Below, piece after piece: positions 4,169 to 49,500 of a stretch of DNA of 64,000 bases; position 1 is the first letter of the stretch, and each line of letters begins with the position of its first letter. Origin of the DNA: an uncultured Lachnospiraceae bacterium. Lineage in GTDB: Bacteria; Bacillota; Clostridia; Lachnospirales; Lachnospiraceae. The position numbers and the translations under genes were made by a program. The DNA lies in the NCBI GenBank assembly GCA_902762905.1, contig CACWQE010000006.1, positions 113-64,112 of the forward strand, in the 5' to 3' direction. Below the pieces are notes generated by a model. It did not search any database. It had not been told where the DNA came from and was given only the letters and a program-made list of their open reading frames with translations.

Positions 4169-4798
4169 CTATAAAGATTGAAGTTGACCATTTTCAATTT
4201 CATATACTTGATCACAGAGAATATCAATATCTTCCCGATTGTGACTAGTAAAAAGTATAGTTTTTCCCTCTTTTTTATAATTGAGGAGTAACGATCGCAT
4301 TTGTTGAGTTCCCTCTCGATCAAGACCATTGAATGGTTCATCTAAAATTAATATTTCAGGATTTTCCATAAAGGCTTGTGCCAGACCAAGTCGTTGTCGC
4401 ATACCGAGAGAATATTTTTTGACTAGTTTATTTCTATCTTGATATAGTCCTGTAGCTTGAAGGGCTTGTTCAATTTCATCTTTTCCAATCTTGTTTTTTA
4501 ATTTAGCTAACATAAGCAGATTTTTGTAACCACTGTAATATGGTAAAAATCCGGGTGTTTCAATAATAAACCCCATATTTTCTGGAAAATCAATGTCCTT
4601 TCCAATTTCTTTTCCCTGTACAAAAATTTTTCCTGTAAATGTATTATGAAAGCCGCAAATACATTTCATAAGCATGGTTTTCCCTGAACCATTTGTTCCA
4701 ATCAGCCCTGTTATATCACCTTTATTAGCTATAAATGTTATGTCATGTAGAATTTCCTGTTTATGATATTGTAAATAAACATGTTGTATTTCAATCAT
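4169..4798 (-). CDS. ABC transporter ATP-binding protein, ABC-2/LanF-like
   Basis: Walker A is GTNGSGKT, the signature is YSLGMRQR (the SLGMxQR variant typical of lantibiotic/bacitracin-type protection ABC ATPases), Walker B is ILILDEP and the H-loop is TSH. Confidence 0.85.
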   Translation of the reverse strand: MIEIQHVYLQYHKQEILHDITFIANKGDITGLIGTNGSGKTMLMKCICGFHNTFTGKIFVQGKEIGKDIDFPENMGFIIETPGFLPYYSGYKNLLMLAKLKNKIGKDEIEQALQATGLYQDRNKLVKKYSLGMRQRLGLAQAFMENPEILILDEPFNGLDREGTQQMRSLLLNYKKEGKTILFTSHNREDIDILCDQVYEIENGQLQSL

Positions 4799-4818
4799 AT
4801 TTGACCTCCGTAAAAATA

Positions 4819-5685
4819 TTAATTTTGGGAAAGAATATCCAAATGGACACTTGTTGCTTTCTTAAGAATAGAAACATAGATCGTCACAATTAATACTCCG
4901 AATAATAGTAAAGAATTTGAAGGAGAAAAGGCATATGCTCTATAATAATCTTGATAGTGTATCCAAAGGATGGAATGACTGATAGGAAAACACCATTTTT
5001 GCGGGGTGTCTATGGTACAAAAGGCAATTCCAATTATAATATTTGCAATAATTAACCAATACCCAATCAGTTTTCGCCCATATAAAGCAGCCCATAGTAG
5101 GAGGCCGCTCCATAGAATAAGTGACAGTCCAAGTAATAGATATGATAGAGCAAATGCTTTTCCGGGAGTCATTTGAAGGTACAGATTCGGCGGTAATAAG
5201 CTTGACATGCCGATTGATCCATCATTAATATACTTTGAATCGTAATCTGTTGCAACAAGACTCCATGCATTTGCTAAATAGGAAACATGACTGGTTTGTA
5301 TCAGCGTAGTAATAATAATAAACGAAATATATGTCAGAAGACTGGTAAATTGAAATACAATTTCCCCCAATATCCAATTGCATCTTCCTGCTCTAGAAAG
5401 AACAAAGCACATATTAGCATCCATACAGGGAAAATCTGCCATTAATGTTAGATAGGCAAATGGTATCAATAACAGAATTAAACCGGAATTGGCTAAAGAA
5501 ATACACGGTTCTAATATGTTGAGGGGTTGTTGCATCTTATTCGCACAATCTAATATAGGAAGAATAATAGTTTCTCGCAAAGGGACAATTAAAACAAAAA
5601 ATAAAATACTTTTGGGGCTACTAAGCCAACGAATGTATTCTGTCCGTGCAACAGCATATATTGAATTTAAGTTATATTTTGTCAT
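4819..5685 (-). CDS. Polytopic membrane protein, putative ABC-2-type permease subunit
   Basis: The 288-aa product has about 6-7 hydrophobic helices. Its start overlaps the stop of the upstream gene, and it is followed 20 nt later by the ATPase gene. Confidence 0.55.
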   Translation of the reverse strand: MTKYNLNSIYAVARTEYIRWLSSPKSILFFVLIVPLRETIILPILDCANKMQQPLNILEPCISLANSGLILLLIPFAYLTLMADFPCMDANMCFVLSRAGRCNWILGEIVFQFTSLLTYISFIIITTLIQTSHVSYLANAWSLVATDYDSKYINDGSIGMSSLLPPNLYLQMTPGKAFALSYLLLGLSLILWSGLLLWAALYGRKLIGYWLIIANIIIGIAFCTIDTPQKWCFPISHSILWIHYQDYYRAYAFSPSNSLLLFGVLIVTIYVSILKKATSVHLDILSQN

Positions 5686-6395
5686 ATTCCGACCTCCCTA
5701 ACACGATATTTCCAGATTTGGAATCCAACGGCGATAGATAATATTAGGAAAAAGAATGAGGAAGCAACTACATGATTTAAAAAAATATTTTGCATAATAT
5801 AATTTAGTAAAAAAGGAAGAGATAATACAACATATTTACTTGAAAAAATTCCTGCAAATGTCCATGCACACGAAGACATTGCAGCACCCCACAACATCAT
5901 TTGCAATATTAAAATAAACATATTTTTGACTTGAATCAAAAGGGAATCCTGTACACCCACAGCTTTGAGTGCTCCGTATTTTGCATCTATAGGAAACATA
6001 CATTTTGTAAATAATGCGTATATAATAAGTCCTGTACCAATAAGAAGTCCACCGCATAGTATAACACGAAAGTAGGATCTTTTTATATAGTTGTACAAGC
6101 CAATGCGTCCTATGCTAAAGCGATAAAAAGAAGTATATTGTTCATCTAAGAATATAGGTATAGTTGGTATTGCAGCCAGAATCGGTAATAGCAGAATAAT
6201 CCAACTATTAAGTCCAGCAGTAAATGCAGTGTACCAACTATATCTTGTGGAATTCTGTGAAGATACAGAAAATGCTATTTCCGCCACTGAATAGTTTCTA
6301 CCGTTCATATTTGTAATTGTGCCGGTCATACAAGTTAATGTAACTGCTAATATACCAATTATAAAATAGAATACATTTATTCGTGTATGTTTCAT
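5682..6395 (-). CDS. Polytopic membrane protein, putative second ABC-2-type permease subunit
   Basis: The 237-aa product has about 6 hydrophobic helices. It overlaps both neighbouring genes by 4 nt. Confidence 0.55.
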   Translation of the reverse strand: MKHTRINVFYFIIGILAVTLTCMTGTITNMNGRNYSVAEIAFSVSSQNSTRYSWYTAFTAGLNSWIILLLPILAAIPTIPIFLDEQYTSFYRFSIGRIGLYNYIKRSYFRVILCGGLLIGTGLIIYALFTKCMFPIDAKYGALKAVGVQDSLLIQVKNMFILILQMMLWGAAMSSCAWTFAGIFSSKYVVLSLPFLLNYIMQNIFLNHVVASSFFFLILSIAVGFQIWKYRVREVGI

Positions 6396-7585
6396 TTTAA
6401 TGTAAATCCTTTCTCGTTTATATTGGTTGTAACTTCTCCGGTTATCATATTGACATTAATATAACAATAATGATTACCCTCAGAGATTCCAATAGATGAG
6501 TTATCCTTACTATATTCAATCATAAAAGAATATACTGGTGTTCCTGTTACTGTATTGCCTGATGCAGCATAGTATTTCGTGCCACTCGTATAGTCGTAAT
6601 CTACATAGAGCGCATACAAGATTTGTATATCGGCAATTGTAATTTTCTGAAATCCAGATAATGTGTGTTCTACAATTTGTACCGCAGTTGGAAAATCAAT
6701 GACTTCTGTTTGTTCTTCAGAAGCATTAATAGATAACATTCCGTTATTGTTAAATCTGGAAATTTGATTTGGCTGTGTAAGATCAAGATTAATATAATTG
6801 TCCATCTGACGAACATATGGATTGCCGTCTTTTTCCTCGATTCCACCACCAAAATAATCTAAAGAAATCCCTTTGTATTGCCACTGAGCCTGCATGGATA
6901 AATAGTAAGTCCCGTTTTGACGTTTACGAATATATACGGTTTTGATAGGATATGTATAATCATTATCTAGAAGAGGACACCTCAAAAGCCATGTATTGAC
7001 ATATTGTATCTGATCAATAAGCGTAGTCGTTTGTCCATCAATTGCGCAAGCAATTTTTAAATTATTCTCTTTTTCGGGATATATTATATCTGTTATTTGA
7101 TTTGGCATATCAAGTTCCATATCATCATAGCTTTGATCGGAAATATATGAGATAGTGCCATTATTTCCAATAAAAAAATATTTTTTCTCAGTGGCATTTT
7201 CGTATACGACACCTGTATCTCCTTGTAGAGCACCTTCATAATTTTGCCAATTGGGATGAGGGATATCCCAAATTGCTGAATATTCCCCTTTTTTTGAAGA
7301 CATTTCAACAGGAAAGGACAACTTGAGAAGATCAATTTCCTTCACATTAGAAAAATCAATATTTGATGGAAGATTAAGATTTTGAGGTGTGAAAGAAAGC
7401 ATATCAATCGAACTTTGTCTTAGTTCTGAGATGGTACAATAATTTAACGTTGTTTCTTCCATTTGGTTGTTTTCTTGATATTTGCTTTTGCGTTCCAAAA
7501 CTGCAGTTGGTGCCTGCTGACATGCAGCCAGCAGGCATAATATACAGCAGACACACAGTATAAAATACACCTTTTTATTTGCCAT
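6392..7585 (-). CDS. Lipoprotein of unknown function
   Basis: The signal peptide ends in the lipobox LLAAC. The mature part is Asn/Tyr/Gln-rich and I recognise no domain in it. Confidence 0.7.
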   Translation of the reverse strand: MANKKVYFILCVCCILCLLAACQQAPTAVLERKSKYQENNQMEETTLNYCTISELRQSSIDMLSFTPQNLNLPSNIDFSNVKEIDLLKLSFPVEMSSKKGEYSAIWDIPHPNWQNYEGALQGDTGVVYENATEKKYFFIGNNGTISYISDQSYDDMELDMPNQITDIIYPEKENNLKIACAIDGQTTTLIDQIQYVNTWLLRCPLLDNDYTYPIKTVYIRKRQNGTYYLSMQAQWQYKGISLDYFGGGIEEKDGNPYVRQMDNYINLDLTQPNQISRFNNNGMLSINASEEQTEVIDFPTAVQIVEHTLSGFQKITIADIQILYALYVDYDYTSGTKYYAASGNTVTGTPVYSFMIEYSKDNSSIGISEGNHYCYINVNMITGEVTTNINEKGFTLK

Positions 7586-7599
7586 GTGTGTACTCCTTT

Positions 7600-7986
7600 T
7601 TAATAGGTTAAACTACCTGAAGGGTATGAGTTTGAACTTCCCGTACTTTGAAAATTAGCAGATGCATATATCGCAGTTCCTTTTGTTGTTTGTACAGATG
7701 ATGAACCGCTTCCTGAATATAAAGCTGCAATACCGTTACTTGTATAAACCATTATAGTAGCACCGCCACCAACTTTTGATACTTTCATCGTTGTTGTACC
7801 ACATGTTGTAGTTACACTTTTACTCCATGATGAGATCTGATCTGATCCCGGGGCTCCTTTAATATATCTTAAACTCCAGTCCTTTGAAGCAGCTTGAGTG
7901 TTTACACCCGCCATACATAATAAGCATGCCATTAAAGATGCTACAACAAATAAATTTTTAGATATTTTTTTAATATTTTTCATCAT
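7600..7986 (-). CDS. Small secreted Ser/Thr/Gly-rich protein of unknown function
   Basis: The track ORF begins at a TTG. I prefer the ATG at 7986, which is preceded by GGAGGA. It carries a Sec signal peptide (MMKNIKKISKNLFVVASLMACLLCMAGVNTQA|AS). The mature product is about 95 aa and is predicted to be beta-rich. Confidence 0.7.
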   Translation of the reverse strand: MMKNIKKISKNLFVVASLMACLLCMAGVNTQAASKDWSLRYIKGAPGSDQISSWSKSVTTTCGTTTMKVSKVGGGATIMVYTSNGIAALYSGSGSSSVQTTKGTAIYASANFQSTGSSNSYPSGSLTY

Positions 7987-8254
7987 ATGAATTTCCTCCA
8001 ATATCTTGAAAATAGTTAATATACATGTTACAATATGATTTGCAATTTTTGGGGGCTTTCTGCAATCTTATCTCATTAAGAAAACAGAAAGCCTTATTCA
8101 ATTGGTGGACTATCTTCCATTGTACTCCCCCTTTCTTTATGATAATCATCCCCTGTCAACCGTCGCCCCGTACTTATGTTTCATTGTAACAGATTTGATA
8201 CGCAATGAACGTTTTCGGGGGCGAGTGGTCGATATTCAGAGGTGAACAGTAATT

Positions 8255-8425
8255 TTATTTACTATTCTTAGTGTGATTGAGTGCAAATTCTGCAAAACCA
8301 TCCGGTTCTTTTGGCTGATAATACATACCTCTACACACAGAAACTGTAACTGTTGCCAACGCAATTGCTAGATTGCATAGTTTTGCACCGTGCTTGTACA
8401 TAAATGTGGACATCCTTTTTCTCAT
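8255..8425 (-). CDS. agrD: AgrD-like autoinducing-peptide precursor (56 aa, absent from the ORF track)
   Basis: Hand translation gives MRKRMSTFMYKHGAKLCNLAIALATVTVSVCRGMYYQPKEPDGFAEFALNHTKNSK. AAAGGAGGA lies 6 nt upstream of the ATG. The product has a basic/amphipathic N-terminal region, a Cys-containing pentapeptide (CRGMY) directly followed by YQPKEP and a charged tail, and the gene is adjacent to agrB. Confidence 0.75.
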   Translation of the reverse strand: MRKRMSTFMYKHGAKLCNLAIALATVTVSVCRGMYYQPKEPDGFAEFALNHTKNSK

Positions 8426-8490
8426 ACATAGTCCTCCTTTTCATATGTATTGTCCAACTTTATAATCGAACAATCAAATTGTAACACTTC

Positions 8491-8530
8491 ATTCACACTG
8501 ATTGACAAAATCACTGACGAATTGTCAAAA
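8491..8530. promoter_or_regulatory. Imperfect 20-bp direct repeat, candidate LytTR-regulator binding site in the divergent agrD/agrB region
   Basis: ATTGACAAAA (8501-8510) and ATTGTCAAAA (8521-8530) are in 20-bp register. On the minus strand the units read TTTTGACAAT..TCAGTGA and TTTTGTCAAT.CAGTGTGA. An extended -10 (TGTTACAAT, 8478-8486, minus strand) lies downstream. Confidence 0.45.
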
Positions 8531-8578
8531 ACAGGGGACGAAATGCATTGATATAATCTTTTGCATTTCATCCCCTGT
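8531..8578. repeat. Inverted repeat with 17-nt arms (hairpin or palindromic operator) between agrD and agrB
   Basis: Arms ACAGGGGACGAAATGCA and TGCATTTCATCCCCTGT are complementary at 16/17 positions, with a 14-nt loop that contains TATAAT (8552-8557). Read on the minus strand the hairpin is followed by TTTTTG. Confidence 0.6.
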
Positions 8579-8696
8579 TTCTGACCTTTCATCTGGTATA
8601 TGTTATATGTAATTTTCCATATGCTATAATCCCCTTTATAAAATGTTTGCAATACTATATTGCCAACATATAAAAATAAAGGAATGAGGTGCTTAC

Positions 8697-9287
8697 ATGT
8701 TGCTATCCGATCGAATCAGTAACCAGCTTACACAAATATGTATTGACAATCACGTCATAGAATCCGGCGAAAAAGAGATATATCATTATTGTTTTTCCTA
8801 TTTCTTTGATATCCTGTTATACAACATGAACATCTTACTACTCGGTCTCCTGCTGCACCGACCTTTCCAGGCCTTGTTATTTACCACTGTTACCTTTCCA
8901 GGCAAAACCCTTGCCGGTGGTGCACACGCCTCCTCCCCAGAACGATGTCATATTATTTCCTACGGATTATTTCTAATTAGTTTATGGATTGTGAACCGTT
9001 ATTCTATCTCCAAAATATCTGCTATAATCATTTATAGCATTGCCTGTGTTATTGTAATTCACTTAGCACCCGTGGATCACCCAAACAAGCGATTTGATTC
9101 CGAACAGAAACACAAGTTACGAATTGCCTGTCACATCTTTATTATTCCGGTAACCCTTGTATTTTGTGTTATGATTTGTTTTAATAAGATTATCTACTAT
9201 AATCTGATCACGCTATGTATTGTAATCCTCATGTGCAATCAGATCATTGGAATTTTGCAGAACAGGAGGTATTCACATGAAGCTTAA
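8697..9287 (+). CDS. agrB: AgrB-family accessory gene regulator B (AgrD-processing membrane peptidase)
   Basis: The 196-aa polytopic membrane protein carries the AgrB signature region LAGGAHASSPERCHIIS, with the catalytic His and Cys at the expected spacing. Confidence 0.85.
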   Translation: MLLSDRISNQLTQICIDNHVIESGEKEIYHYCFSYFFDILLYNMNILLLGLLLHRPFQALLFTTVTFPGKTLAGGAHASSPERCHIISYGLFLISLWIVNRYSISKISAIIIYSIACVIVIHLAPVDHPNKRFDSEQKHKLRIACHIFIIPVTLVFCVMICFNKIIYYNLITLCIVILMCNQIIGILQNRRYSHEA

Positions 9288-10011
9288 TATTGCCATATGT
9301 GATGACGAGAACCGCATATTAACACATACCTCGTCCCTAATTGACATATATCAATTTCAGCATTTAGATACGAACCTTTCTGTTGATTGTTACACTTCAG
9401 GCGAATCTTTATTAGAGAATTATACGCAACCTCGACAATATCATATTCTATTACTTGATATAGAGATGCCCGGGATGAATGGGATTGAAACTGCACGACA
9501 GATACGTAATACAATTGACCGGAATGCCATTATTGTATTCATCAGCAGTTATCCAGAATATATGCAGGAAAGTTTCTCTGTCCATCCTTACTTCTTCCTG
9601 CAAAAACCTGCAACCCAGAAAAATATGAATCAATTATTAGACGAGATTATAGATGAGATTACCAATTCCACACATATGTACACGCTCATAGATATGGAAG
9701 ATATCCAACATACCATCTATCTCAACGATGTACTCTATATCCATACCTACAATGCCCGGAAAGAATTGCTATCTTTTCATCTTCCGAACAAAGAACTTCA
9801 TACAAAAGGACACCTTGGGGAATGGGAAATGAAACTACAGAATTATCATTATATCTCCTGTTATCGGGGATATCTGGTGAATCTGACTCACATCCACTAT
9901 GTGACAAAGGATCAGTTAATCTTAGACAATAACGAAGCCATTCCTTTAAGCCGCACAAACCGCAAACGTATCCACCAACTCTTCTTAGATCAGGTTGTTA
10001 CAATAGAGTAA
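9277..10011 (+). CDS. LytTR-family response regulator (AgrA-like)
   Basis: The product starts MKLNIAICDDE, has the receiver motif LLLDIEMPGMNG and a C-terminal LytTR domain. The ATG at 9277 follows AGGAGG and overlaps the agrB stop by 11 nt. Confidence 0.9.
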   Translation: MKLNIAICDDENRILTHTSSLIDIYQFQHLDTNLSVDCYTSGESLLENYTQPRQYHILLLDIEMPGMNGIETARQIRNTIDRNAIIVFISSYPEYMQESFSVHPYFFLQKPATQKNMNQLLDEIIDEITNSTHMYTLIDMEDIQHTIYLNDVLYIHTYNARKELLSFHLPNKELHTKGHLGEWEMKLQNYHYISCYRGYLVNLTHIHYVTKDQLILDNNEAIPLSRTNRKRIHQLFLDQVVTIE

Positions 10012-10027
10012 CCGGAAAGGAAAACTT

Positions 10028-11356
10028 ATGCATTATATTCTTACTGTTATATCCTGTATATTTGACGCTTTTATCATTCTGACATATATGAACGGGATCT
10101 TTACAACGCGTAAAAAAGAGGTATCTAGCACTATATTTTATCTGTCTTTTGCTATAATGGAAGTGCTATTATTATGCAACAATTATTCGTTCGTAAAATT
10201 AGATTCCAACACATCCGTAGTTTTCACATCACTGCTCAGTCTCACAACCAATTTCTGCCTTACCCTTTTATACGAATCGAATTGGAAGGAACGTCTCTTT
10301 ACCTGCATTTCATTCCAGTTTTTCTCTCTATCATCCGAATATTTGTTAACAGTTGTGGTGAATCTTATTAAACCAAATCTATCACAATTACTGGGTGTTT
10401 CTACATTTATCGCCATTATGGGAACATTAAATGAAATATCTCTATTTGTAATAGTCCTACTCATCATTTCTTTCTGGAAACGGCAATTCCAGCAATACCC
10501 AAAAGAATATAATGGTCTTCTTTTTGTCACACCCTTTATTACTCTCCTAATTCTGTTGTCTGCACCAATGTCACAGAATAATGCCGTACATTACCGATTC
10601 TTTTTTGAATCACTCTGCACCTTGCTATCCATATTGAACCTCTGCAATTATATCTTATTGCAACGCACATTCCACTATGCGCAATATCAGTTAGAAAATG
10701 CACAATTATCAAAGCAGATTCAGTTTCAGGAAGAGAAATACCAACAAATCGGTGCCGCATATCAGAACTGCCGCCGTATCGTACATGATGTAGACAAGCA
10801 ATATCACACACTCCAAGAACACCTGAGTCACAAATCATATCAGGAACTAGAAGCATTCCTGTCCAATGCCAAAGCTGACTTGAAAGCCAACTCTACAAAA
10901 TATAACACAGGAAATCTGGTCATTGATTCCTTTCTGACCAACTATGATATTCTCGCCCAGAATCACAATATATCATTTGAATCCATTCTGAACGTGGATG
11001 CCGCAGATATTCCTCTCAACGACTACGAATTAAGCATTGTATTAGGCAACCTATTGGATAATAGTCTGCATGCCTGTCAGAAACAAGCTGCACCAAGACG
11101 GTATATTCATATTCATATAGTAACAACCGGGCAAAAACATTTCATAATCAACATCCGCAATACCAAAACGCCAGTTATTCTGCCAAATGTTCGTCCCTCT
11201 TTTCCGGATCTTTCACATGGATATGGTCTTGAAAATGTCAAACGAATCGTAGAAGCCAAATATGGCACAATCGGTTGGGAAGATAACGATGATACCTTTA
11301 TTGTAAAACTCATGGTACCAATCTTTAAGAAAAAGAAAGGACGTTATCTGTATTAG
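10028..11356 (+). CDS. AgrC/ComD-type (HPK10) sensor histidine kinase with a GHKL ATPase domain
   Basis: The 442-aa product has an N-terminal half of about 6 TM helices and a C-terminal ATPase domain with an N-box (NLLDNSLHAC) and a G-box (GYGLENVKRIV). Confidence 0.85.
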   Translation: MHYILTVISCIFDAFIILTYMNGIFTTRKKEVSSTIFYLSFAIMEVLLLCNNYSFVKLDSNTSVVFTSLLSLTTNFCLTLLYESNWKERLFTCISFQFFSLSSEYLLTVVVNLIKPNLSQLLGVSTFIAIMGTLNEISLFVIVLLIISFWKRQFQQYPKEYNGLLFVTPFITLLILLSAPMSQNNAVHYRFFFESLCTLLSILNLCNYILLQRTFHYAQYQLENAQLSKQIQFQEEKYQQIGAAYQNCRRIVHDVDKQYHTLQEHLSHKSYQELEAFLSNAKADLKANSTKYNTGNLVIDSFLTNYDILAQNHNISFESILNVDAADIPLNDYELSIVLGNLLDNSLHACQKQAAPRRYIHIHIVTTGQKHFIINIRNTKTPVILPNVRPSFPDLSHGYGLENVKRIVEAKYGTIGWEDNDDTFIVKLMVPIFKKKKGRYLY

Positions 11357-46553: not shown

Positions 46554-49500
46554 TTATTCTGTTATTTCTGTTAATACAAAGTCAGATAATGTAATGACTG
46601 CAGCTTCTGTTGGTTTATATGTTGTTTTACCTTCAGAAGTGTATGTATCAATTACTCCCATATTTACATTCATCTGGATTGCATTACAAGTATCCTTATC
46701 AGTCAAATCTACCGTATAATTAACAACCTTTTCAACACCCGCTTCTAACTCCAATGACTCTCCACCGTACCATGTATATTTGTTCTCTGTCGGATCCTGA
46801 AATACATACTTGATGGTGCGGTTTGTTGAAGAAGTAACCTTAAATGTAAAATGGTACTTCTTTCCTGTCTCCAATGTTAACGGCTCCTGTGTCAGTTTTA
46901 CATTCCACTCCTCTGTTCCAGGGTTATTTACAGTATAGGTTATTTTTCTATCTGCAACACTGATACTTCCCAATTCTTCTGAAAGAATATATGGCTTCCA
47001 GTTTGTTGTTCCATCAGCAAAATTACCATTTGCAATGATATTAGTTGTCTCTGTACCTGCAGATGTTTTCTCAACTAAAGAGATATTAGAAAGTGTAACT
47101 GTATGCTCCGCTGTAATCTGTGCACCCTCTTCTTCACCGATTTTACCTAATGAGAAGCTGAGTACTGCATATTTATCATTCTCTGTCATTGTAAATTCAT
47201 CTTCTACATGCTGAGACTCTGAAGTCAAATCCACATCCGCTTCCTTATATACACCCCAAACTCCACCATTTTTATCACCGTTTTTCTGAACGGCATAATG
47301 CATCTTACGATTCATACTAGACTGCACATCATATGACAATACATAGGTTTTACCTGCCTGAAGTGGTATATCATTCTGCTTAAGCTGTACGTGCCAGTCC
47401 TCGGTGCCTGTGTTCTTGATTGTATAGGTAATTGCTCCATTTGCAATTGCACTGGAAGCATCTGCAACAACATCACTATCCCAGTTTGCAATGGTTTCAA
47501 CCCATGCAGAATCTTTACCAACACCTTTGGCAAAATCTGCTTCCTGAACCAGATTCGTTCCTGCCGGAATATCCGGGAACACATCCTCCGGCTCTGCAAT
47601 CTTCTCCAGAGAAATATCATCAATACAGATTCTGTGCTGGGTCGTAATCTGTTTATCAACATTACCCATCGCAATATTGAAAATAGAACCTTTATCTGTT
47701 TCATAATTCATCTTGAAGTTCACACTAATGGTCTGGTATTCTCCGTTCACGTCAACCGTATCCTGTACATAAGGAGTCCAGTCTTCCTTACCTGCTTCGG
47801 TCTTGTGCACCGCACCGTTTCTCTGAATTGCATAAGATACCTTTCTGCCACCGGCAAGATCTGTCTTAATCTTAAACTTCAGATTGTACCACTGTTCCTT
47901 CTCCAGTACCACATCTGACTGCTTTAACTGGATATGCCAATCCTGGTCTCCGGTATTCTTGATTGTAATATCAAATGCATTATTTTCTTTCTGACTGTCT
48001 ACAACATAAGTCACATTACTTGGCGTATAGGCATATACTTCATAGCCTGCAAGCCCTGCATTAAAGGAACCATTCTTAATCAAGGTATCCTCTACCAAAC
48101 GAATGTTGTCTAATAATACGGTACCATTAACACCAAGTGCGAATTCGATATCGTCGATTGACTCAATATTTGCCTCTGCACCAATTGTAAGCTTCAGTGT
48201 ATAGCTCTGACTCTTCTTGCCAATTGTAAATGTACGTGTAGCACCTGCCACCTTAACAGTAATATCCTTTGTCTCCTCAGCATTCTCTGTATCCAGACAT
48301 GCATCAAAGCTTAACGCATATTTACCCGGTGTCAGCGGAAGCCCAGTCTGCTTCAACACAACCTCATTTGCAGCTTCGCAGCCCTTTGTTGTAATCTTAA
48401 ATCTTCTGTTGTCCAGGACTCCTGTAACCCCGTAGTTCGCCTTGCTGCCTGCATCTTCAATATCCCAATACTGCAGGTTCTTCTTTCCGGTTTCTGTCCC
48501 CTCCTGGAACTTGCCATTGTACACATAGTTGCCATCTGTCAATACCTTCTTGCTGTCATCGATTTTCACATCGCCAATTCTTGTGAAATTCACATTGGTG
48601 ATAAATACATCAGAAATTGGATCTGTTTTACCAAGGTTAAACTCTAAACGTGCATTGGCATCGTCATGGTCTGTCACCTCAAATGTATATGTATATGTCT
48701 GCTTGGTTGTTGTAAGTGCTACTTCCGTATCATTCAAATATCTTGCGTAATTGTAATCCGGAGCGGAAACATCCACAATCATCTTTCTGTCACTTTCCGC
48801 ATATGCATCAAAGCTTATCTGATACTTACCGCCTCTCTTCACAGGAAGGTTCGCCTGTACAAACTGAACGGCATAGCTTTCTGTACCGGCTGCTGTGGTC
48901 TTAATCTGTACAGCCTTGGCACCTTCACCGAACGCAGGGGCCTCTACGATAGCAGCCGTTGCCTTGCCACCCTTATCAGTCATAAACTGCCATTTAGAAC
49001 CATTTTCGCCTGACAGGTCATCTTCTTTAGAAAAATCATTATTCGTTAAGTAGTTCTCGCCTTTTCCCGGCTCTTCAACCTCCGGCTTTACCGGCTTTTC
49101 TACTGTGGCCTCTTTTTCCGCGTAGTATTCCGGTGACTTCTGATATGCCTTTACATAGTCTACAGTAAATGCCTGGTCATCATAAGTTGTTGTTCCATCC
49201 GGATAACCAACCCACGAGCCGCCGATTGCCAAATTCAGAATCATATAAAACGGCTGGTCAAATGGTGCCGGATAGGCAACGGTACCCTGTCCTTCTGTTG
49301 TAGAATACCAGTCCTTTGCTTCATGGTACTTGATACCATCTACATACCATACAATCTTGCCCGGCTCCCACTCTACCGCATAGGTATGATACTGACTGGA
49401 GAAATCTCCCTCTGTTATCACTTTTGTTCCCTGTGCCTGACCGTGAGGGTTACCATAGTGAATGGTTCCATAGGCTTTCTTGGTATTATCACCCATAACC

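Follow-up and report, generated by a model that had tools for sequence, protein, structure and literature searches.

A 56-residue AgrD-family autoinducing-peptide precursor encoded divergently from agrB in an agr-type locus of an uncultured Lachnospiraceae bacterium

Clostridial agr loci have been listed in a 2025 primer as agrBDCA, as agrBD plus agrCA, as agrD1B1 or as agrBD alone, and a divergently transcribed agrD is absent from that list (PMC12312760). The Pro-X-X-Pro motif of clostridial AgrD has been proposed as the region recognized by AgrB (PMC8748961). Autoinducing peptides (AIPs) most commonly, and by far, have five-membered rings (PMC10301443), and the clostridial reference rings include [CLWFT] of C. 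perfringens and the six-residue [CVLVTL] of C. acetobutylicum (PMC12312760). In S. aureus the catalytic dyad of AgrB consists of His77 and Cys84 (PMC10482373). AgrD/AgrB pairs from Lachnospiraceae have been catalogued by genome mining with PF04647 and TIGR04223, and some Lachnospira AIPs have been synthesized (PMC11953309; PMC12180512). The text of these two reports, as searched, contains no description of a divergent agrD layout or of the conserved leader described below, and the second gives the number of chemically characterized AIPs as 43 across six species (PMC12180512). The locus analysed here lies in a stretch of 64,000 nucleotides from an uncultured Lachnospiraceae bacterium, referred to below as the window.

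A preliminary description of the window proposed a 56-aa ORF on the minus strand at 8255–8425. The ORF is present and its translation is exactly MRKRMSTFMYKHGAKLCNLAIALATVTVSVCRGMYYQPKEPDGFAEFALNHTKNSK. The Shine-Dalgarno sequence AAAGGAGGA (8432–8440, minus strand), read off the sequence, was likewise found where it had been placed, 6 nt upstream of the ATG (8423–8425; spacer CTATGT), and the alignment of relatives shows a GGAG-type sequence at the equivalent position. The gap that holds the ORF, from the ORF of a small secreted protein (TTG start at 8001) to agrB (8697), is indeed 695 nt long, and the distance to agrB on the opposite strand, measured from ATG to ATG, is 272 nt as had been claimed. 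The product consists of a leader (residues 1–30), a predicted ring spanning Cys31 to Tyr35 (CRGMY) and a tail (residues 36–56) with P38-x-x-P41. The N-terminus, described earlier as basic and amphipathic, has a charge of +5 in residues 1–15 followed by a hydrophobic stretch in residues 16–30. All three parts of an AgrD precursor are present, namely the leader, Cys31 followed by RGMY, and a tail with three acidic and three basic residues and P38-K-E-P41.

The AgrD-like identity proposed for the ORF was supported by TIGR04223, by a family profile, by the shared layout and by the linkage to agrB. TIGR04223, the NCBIfam model titled 'AgrD family cyclic lactone autoinducer peptide', matched residues 16–42 at 22.8 bits (curated cut-off 19; E 7.4e-5). 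PF05931, the second model suggested for this check, gave no match to the 56-aa peptide at E <= 1. We read this as the limit of a staphylococcal-specific model, because PF05931 is titled 'Staphylococcal AgrD'; 3 of 66 relatives matched it weakly, the best at E 0.027, and the window peptide is outside the staphylococcal AgrD subfamily. As a control for chance, an HMM built from 61 distant members, with the window's own group excluded, was run against the 1,426 six-frame stop-to-stop segments of the window. The agrD ORF scored 81.7 bits (E 1.8e-24) while the runner-up reached only 13 bits, and by this distant-relative profile the 64-kb window contains only one such AgrD-type ORF. The runner-up, a weak AgrD-profile match at 48436–48525 on the plus strand, was dismissed, as it runs antisense within a 1,294-aa glycoside-hydrolase-like gene.

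The ORF encodes an AgrD-family member by TIGR04223 and stands head-to-head with agrB. Its earlier designation as unannotated needs qualifying, since the gene has already been called publicly as HCJ07029.1, 'hypothetical protein', although a functional label is absent. HCJ07029.1 is the identical protein from a Lachnospiraceae bacterium MAG and is present on 120 contigs; its neighbours in the public record, AgrB included, are likewise labelled hypothetical. That ORF 8255–8425 is the agrD of a complete agr-type quorum-sensing locus is the reading we favour, with a probability of roughly 0.85.

The gene on the other side of the divergent region, agrB (8697–9287, plus strand), encodes a putative membrane peptidase/cyclase, and the claim of an AgrB homologue was confirmed by a full-length match to PF04647 (E 1.1e-30). 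The signature that had been written as GGAHA..S....C does not occur literally, but GGAHASSPERC is present and corresponds to His77 ... Cys84, two residues that are invariant in six AgrBs of 26–98% pairwise identity. A PDB sequence search with AgrB returned no solved relative and only a spurious K+ channel match (E 0.74). The agrB stop overlaps the start of the gene for an AgrA-like response regulator (9277–10011, plus strand) with a receiver domain (PF00072; phospho-acceptor context LLLD61IEMPG, with Asp61) and a LytTR DNA-binding domain (PF04397). This is followed by an AgrC-like sensor histidine kinase (10028–11356, plus strand) with a GHKL ATPase domain (PF14501 HATPase_c_5), for which hydropathy gave at least five hydrophobic segments in residues 1–181 and whose H-box is RRIVHDVDKQYHTL (His253). 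An AgrB with the His/Cys dyad is therefore found beside agrD, and this linkage is kept in six divergent loci. The locus also holds what appear to be the canonical companions, that is an AgrC-type kinase, an AgrA-type LytTR regulator and candidate direct-repeat operators. The canonical co-transcription of agrD directly downstream of agrB is not seen, agrD being read from the other strand, where it has a predicted promoter of its own.

Six related loci (L001, L004, L008, L014, L015 and L025) keep the order kinase < regulator < AgrB <-> AgrD > small secreted protein. AgrB identity to the window in these loci is 28–35%, save for L008 (98%) and L014 (72%), and AgrD identity across them spans 31–88%. 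As the layout is kept in six loci, a divergent agrD is the rule in this subfamily. A literature search for such a layout returned nothing relevant, an absence that is no proof of novelty.

Several relatives depart from this arrangement. In L018 (8969–9720, plus strand) a 51-aa AgrD with ring CTLWY and tail EPKAPE is encoded directly upstream of agrB and co-oriented with it, followed by the same repeat-pair promoter, a MEDSPPIK mini-ORF/hairpin and a small secreted protein. In Clostridium sp. CAG:590 (L007, 4619–4717), and also in L023, agrB survives as a remnant of its last 33 codons, which in L007 is 82% identical to residues 165–197 of the L001 AgrB; agrD (ring CKGRY, altered tail end), regulator and kinase are retained in CAG:590. 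L026 has no agrB between regulator and agrD. Since agrD is intact in two lineages without an adjacent agrB, its persistence is not strictly dependent on a neighbouring agrB; CAG:590 and L026 may be AgrB-less lineages or may rely on an agrB elsewhere in the genome. L012 (2513–2737) and L013, of the same species, are 97% identical to window positions 8361–10967. Near codon 22 of agrD their homology to the window ends, and from there the agrD leader continues in frame into a sequence rich in Thr, Ser and Gly (P0033). Across the alignment, which takes in agrB, there are 32 gap positions, and ORF calling gave 82 codons there in place of a full-length agrB (the public protein has 145 aa). The agr allele of these two loci seems to be defective or rearranged. 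In P0006, a peptide from an ENA contig that is 98% identical to the window peptide, Cys31 is replaced by Gly. The substitution would abolish ring formation and points to a sequencing error or to a null allele of natural origin.

The extent of the family was assessed by searching a profile against 1.84 billion representative proteins (E <= 0.001). At least 139 clusters, formed at 50% identity, share the AgrD layout of a basic start followed by K-x-G-x-x-L-C-x-x-A and a hydrophobic stretch, a ring of Cys and four residues that is most often C-R-x-x-[Y/F/W], and a tail of the form Y-Q-P-x-E-P-x-G-[L/F]-x-x-F. Cys31, Pro38 and Pro41 are the sole invariant columns of a 66-member alignment, and TIGR04223 matched 52 of the 66 members at E <= 0.01. 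A scan of a genome collection with the AgrD alignment returned one species representative, Clostridium sp. CAG:590. The conservation checks put forward in the preliminary description came out in favour of its reading, in that the frame is open in all related loci, with no stop or frameshift in the codon comparison, and that close relatives show next to no change in Cys31 or in the 21-residue tail.

The ring varies between these fixed parts. The alleles CRGMY, CRGKF, CHRKY, CKYKY and CKGRY were observed among close relatives, in peptides that are 54–88% identical (50% for the CAG:590 allele). Differences in the ring codons of the more divergent alleles are non-synonymous save for one synonymous change (L001 versus L007), and between the window group and the others 2–3 synonymous changes stand beside 2–3 non-synonymous ones. 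A hypervariable ring between a fixed Cys31 and a fixed tail is, as we interpret it, the AgrD signature of a variable signal with conserved processing determinants. The expectation that third codon positions would drift held only in part. Tail codon differences are synonymous in several pairs (in L011 versus L004 four are synonymous and none non-synonymous), but against distant lineages the tail codons are over-conserved. In agrD codons 36–56 (8255–8320) identical codons are used at 16 of 19 positions versus L001 and at 19 of 21 versus L004, whereas in agrB, agrA and agrC, compared between the same loci, roughly 40–44% of the codons for identical residues agree (Fisher p of 2e-4 and 4e-5 versus the tail). 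Given this excess over the neighbouring genes, part of the tail conservation lies at the nucleotide level. Protein-level selection thus accounts for only part of the tail's conservation against distant lineages, and the codon identity points to a constraint on the nucleotides themselves or to recent recombination of the stretch that runs from the agrD tail to the leader.

The 271-nt spacer between agrD and agrB contains a 32-nt inverted repeat with arms at 8516–8547 and 8562–8593, both of which consist of two 9-nt direct repeats in a 21-nt register. On the minus strand, the LytTR-type pair GACGAATTG-12 nt-GACGAAATG (8516–8547, 21-nt register) is located 29 nt upstream of the predicted extended -10 element of the agrD promoter, TGTTACAAT (8478–8486), in which TA-AAT is invariant in five aligned loci. 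The mirror-image LytTR-type pair on the plus strand (8562–8593) would serve the agrB promoter, and the predicted extended -10 element of agrB-agrA-agrC, TGCTATAAT (8622–8630, plus strand), is found 28 nt after it. A third predicted promoter (8183–8250, minus strand), between agrD and the secreted-protein gene, consists of the repeat pair ACTGTTCACC-N-CGACCACTCGCC at 8218–8250, an interval of 28 nt and a further copy of the agrD -10 sequence at 8183–8191, and is conserved in L008, L011, L006 and L018–L022. Its repeats are closer to the operators of L001, L004 and L007 than to the agrB/agrD operator of the window itself.

The three predicted promoters share one geometry, a direct-repeat pair followed after 28–29 nt by TGNTAYAAT. 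A degenerate two-unit repeat pattern occurred three times in 64 kb, each time at the agr locus, against 0.05 occurrences expected, a chance estimate that is not independent, since the three window sites themselves served to define the pattern. Independent of this fitting, the pattern recurs at homologous positions in divergent loci, and the palindromic operator architecture is kept in relatives though its sequence differs. We take the window repeats to bear only a loose resemblance to the published AgrA consensus, and we infer that the regulator binds at the repeat pairs. In a consensus promoter/terminator scan sigma-70 sites were not in excess, and the interval from agrD to the following gene showed no terminator; the proposed promoters rest on the conserved extended -10 elements and the repeat geometry. 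An Rfam search over 7800–8800 (E <= 10) returned only chance miRNA-type hairpin matches, all on the palindromic operator.

A nucleotide-invariant leader was recognized after the third promoter by multi-locus comparison and folding (8054–8120, minus strand). It consists of a mini-ORF of eight codons at 8094–8120, ATGGAAGATAGTCCACCAATTGAATAA, which reads MEDSPPIE and is preceded by a GGGGGAG Shine-Dalgarno sequence, and of a stem-loop at 8054–8093, GGCTTTCTG...CAGAAAGCC, that abuts the mini-ORF stop codon. The conserved block of ~90 nt (~8045–8135) hardly varies at the nucleotide level across more than 10 loci with flanking proteins of 30–55% identity, differences being confined to the loop at the apex of the hairpin and to the final sense codon (E or K). 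It matched no Rfam family in the interval searched (7800–8800, E <= 10). The fold of the whole leader, with a z-score of -0.9, is not significant; the hairpin at 8054–8093 taken alone is robust. We regard the block as a candidate for a leader-peptide attenuator, or for a small regulatory RNA, that belongs to agr loci, and the mini-ORF with its hairpin is the most unusual item found, adjoining agrD rather than lying within it.

The leader is followed by a putative output operon (4169–7986, minus strand), described from its ORFs, an ABC_tran match, synteny in L001 and L007 and a structure model. It encodes a 128-aa secreted protein (7600–7986), a 397-aa lipoprotein-like protein (6392–7585), two membrane proteins (5682–6395 and 4819–5685) and an ABC ATPase (4169–4798; ABC_tran, E 2e-28). 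The 128-aa protein matched neither Pfam nor NCBIfam nor DUF2712, has four homologues only and is fast-evolving. AlphaFold modelled it as a beta-sandwich (pLDDT 72.6), and Foldseek against the PDB gave no informative neighbour, the best being no better than E 6e-3 with TM < 0.5. In L020, a strain 98.5% identical, homology with the window breaks at 7962, and in other lineages the gene after agrD encodes a different secreted protein (DUF2712, CBM_2 or a protein of 600–800 aa).

A tentative and, in our estimate, rather unlikely extension is that the agr circuit has been re-wired so that agrD is uncoupled from agrB and placed on the effector side of a symmetric operator, the true output being the mini-ORF and stem-loop after the third, AgrA-type promoter. 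If this were true, the leader would act as a translation-coupled attenuator or as an RNAIII-like element gating the hypervariable secreted protein and the ABC transporter. The MEDSPPI[E/K] leader is also found beside the differently built agr locus of L018, and would on this view be a conserved cis-regulatory RNA, or a leader peptide, new to the description of clostridial agr systems.

The mature product of agrD is predicted to be a five-residue CRGMY thiolactone in which Tyr35 would be joined to Cys31. The reference clostridial rings are flanked by HQPEEP and YEP, and the C. acetobutylicum ring [CVLVTL] ends directly before Y-E-P. In C. botulinum AgrD1, YQP adjoins the Cys region (...CYWCVYQP...), and in the window AgrD exactly five residues, Cys included, precede Y-Q-P. 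The CRGMY ring is predicted because the reference rings end one residue before [Q/E]-P. The [H/Y]QPxxP motif had been named in the preliminary description as the AgrB recognition region, which agrees with the role proposed for Pro-X-X-Pro in clostridial AgrD (PMC8748961). The calculated [M+H]+ of the CRGMY ring is 611.243 in the tail-less form and 710.311, 797.343 and 896.412 with 1–3 tail residues (V-, SV- and VSV-); for a six-residue ring the series is 774.306 and 873.375. Since the residues before Cys31 are variable, the N-terminal cleavage site cannot be read from the sequence, and both the ring register and the N-terminal tail length are to be taken as predictions. A tail-less form with a free N-terminal Cys could rearrange to the lactam, an all-amide cyclopeptide.

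The mechanism that we propose for the locus follows by homology. The basic and hydrophobic leader (residues 1–30) would take the AgrD precursor to the membrane, where AgrB (His77/Cys84) would recognize the tail YQPKEPDGF..., cut between Tyr35 and Tyr36 and join the Tyr35 carbonyl to the Cys31 thiol, forming the five-residue CRGMY thiolactone. A protease would remove the leader and leave an N-terminal tail of 0 to ~4 residues. The exported peptide would be sensed by the multi-pass kinase, which would phosphorylate the LytTR regulator at Asp61. The regulator would in turn bind the 9-nt direct-repeat pairs (21-nt register) located 28–29 nt upstream of the three TGNTAYAAT -10 elements, and agrB-agrA-agrC, agrD and the downstream operon with its mini-ORF leader, variable secreted protein and ABC transporter would be switched on.

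The ORF could be an agrD and still give rise to another signal, either a six-residue ring CRGMYY or a tail-less S-to-N-shifted cyclo(CRGMY). Six-membered rings and rearranging tail-less AIPs are documented in clostridia (PMC12312760; PMC10301443; PMC11953309), and the residue preceding Cys31 is V, F, G or N in relatives. Most members, however, keep exactly four residues between Cys and the start of the aromatic-Q/E-P tail, and five-membered rings are described as far commoner (PMC10301443); we hold such an altered signal to be somewhat unlikely. A more radical departure from the AgrD reading would be a small exported protein or lipoprotein, with residues 1–30 as signal peptide, a lipidated Cys31 and a 26-aa mature peptide. 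The N-terminus does resemble a signal peptide, its +5 charge (residues 1–15) being followed by a 15-residue hydrophobic stretch, and in L012/L013 the first ~22 codons are fused in frame to Thr/Ser/Gly-rich sequence similar to that of the secreted proteins whose genes follow downstream. This explanation is highly improbable given that relatives carry V, F, G, N, I, C or K at position -1; with that residue variable there is no lipobox and the lipoprotein reading fails. The window sequence V-S-V-C does not fit the pattern [LVI][ASTVI][GAS]C, and the TIGR04223 and family-profile matches and the conserved agrB linkage also count against it.

The 3' third of the ORF and ~200 nt beyond it are conserved at the nucleotide level well above the neighbouring genes, as would be expected if the frame were open only through DNA or RNA conservation, for instance of a regulatory region of the downstream operon, with no peptide made. 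The 5' two-thirds, on the other hand, diverge freely while every locus remains free of stops and frameshifts, the layout of the peptide persists in 139 clusters (50% identity) whose amino acids have been substituted, and the strong Shine-Dalgarno sequence is conserved, all of which makes a non-coding origin of the frame extremely doubtful. It is also conceivable that a genuine agrD sits in a locus that no longer functions, as a decaying or 'cheater' agr. Decay of this kind is seen in some other strains, where agrD is truncated and fused and the agrB-containing region carries indels (L012/L013), where agrB is deleted (CAG:590) and where Cys31 is changed to Gly (P0006). The four genes of the window are nevertheless full length with intact catalytic and phospho-acceptor residues, and the identical peptide recurs on 120 contigs, and we consider a non-functional locus very unlikely.

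Judged from its sequence, the peptide is a bona fide precursor of the AgrD family whose ring sequence is new. As a category it is not new, because the gene has been called publicly, mining studies use TIGR04223 and the head-to-head layout recurs in the subfamily. The divergent layout with its triple promoter is a modest architectural variant that is typical of the family. To our knowledge, gut commensal Lachnospiraceae are the source of almost no characterized AIPs. The window peptide stands for a large and coherent subfamily, at least 139 clusters in size, whose ring is cationic and of the form C-R-x-x-aromatic, and it comes with a clean prediction, in the form of a peptide sequence, masses, a neighbouring cognate receptor and three promoters that are candidates for reporter use. 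The alleles of the ring (CRGMY, CRGKF, CHRKY, CKYKY and CKGRY) look like pherotypes, which opens cross-talk and interference among related gut bacteria to testing. The understanding of agr as such is unchanged; what is gained is a function for a 'hypothetical protein' and a pointer to a conserved leader element.

Compared with the AgrD proteins of C. perfringens, C. botulinum (AgrD1) and C. acetobutylicum, the window precursor has the same signal-peptide-like leader and single ring-forming Cys, the same five-residue ring followed by aromatic/His-[Q/E]-P-x-x-P and the same match to TIGR04223. It differs in that the ring is new and cationic (CRGMY), the Arg at ring position 2 being a hallmark of the subfamily, in that the tail, at 21 aa, is longer and hardly varies, and in that agrD is divergent from agrB instead of forming the agrBD or agrDB arrangement listed for clostridia (PMC12312760). 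No RNAIII homologue was found at the window locus in the Rfam search. In S. aureus, P2 drives agrBDCA and the divergent P3 drives RNAIII; both systems have a divergent regulatory region with two direct-repeat pairs and a LytTR regulator, an AgrB with His77 and Cys84 at the same residue numbers, an HPK10-type kinase and a hypervariable ring that gives specificity groups. In the window, by contrast, agrD has left the P2 side, where agrB lies, for the divergent 'P3' side, agrB is followed by agrA and then agrC, and a third promoter of the same type precedes a protein-coding operon.
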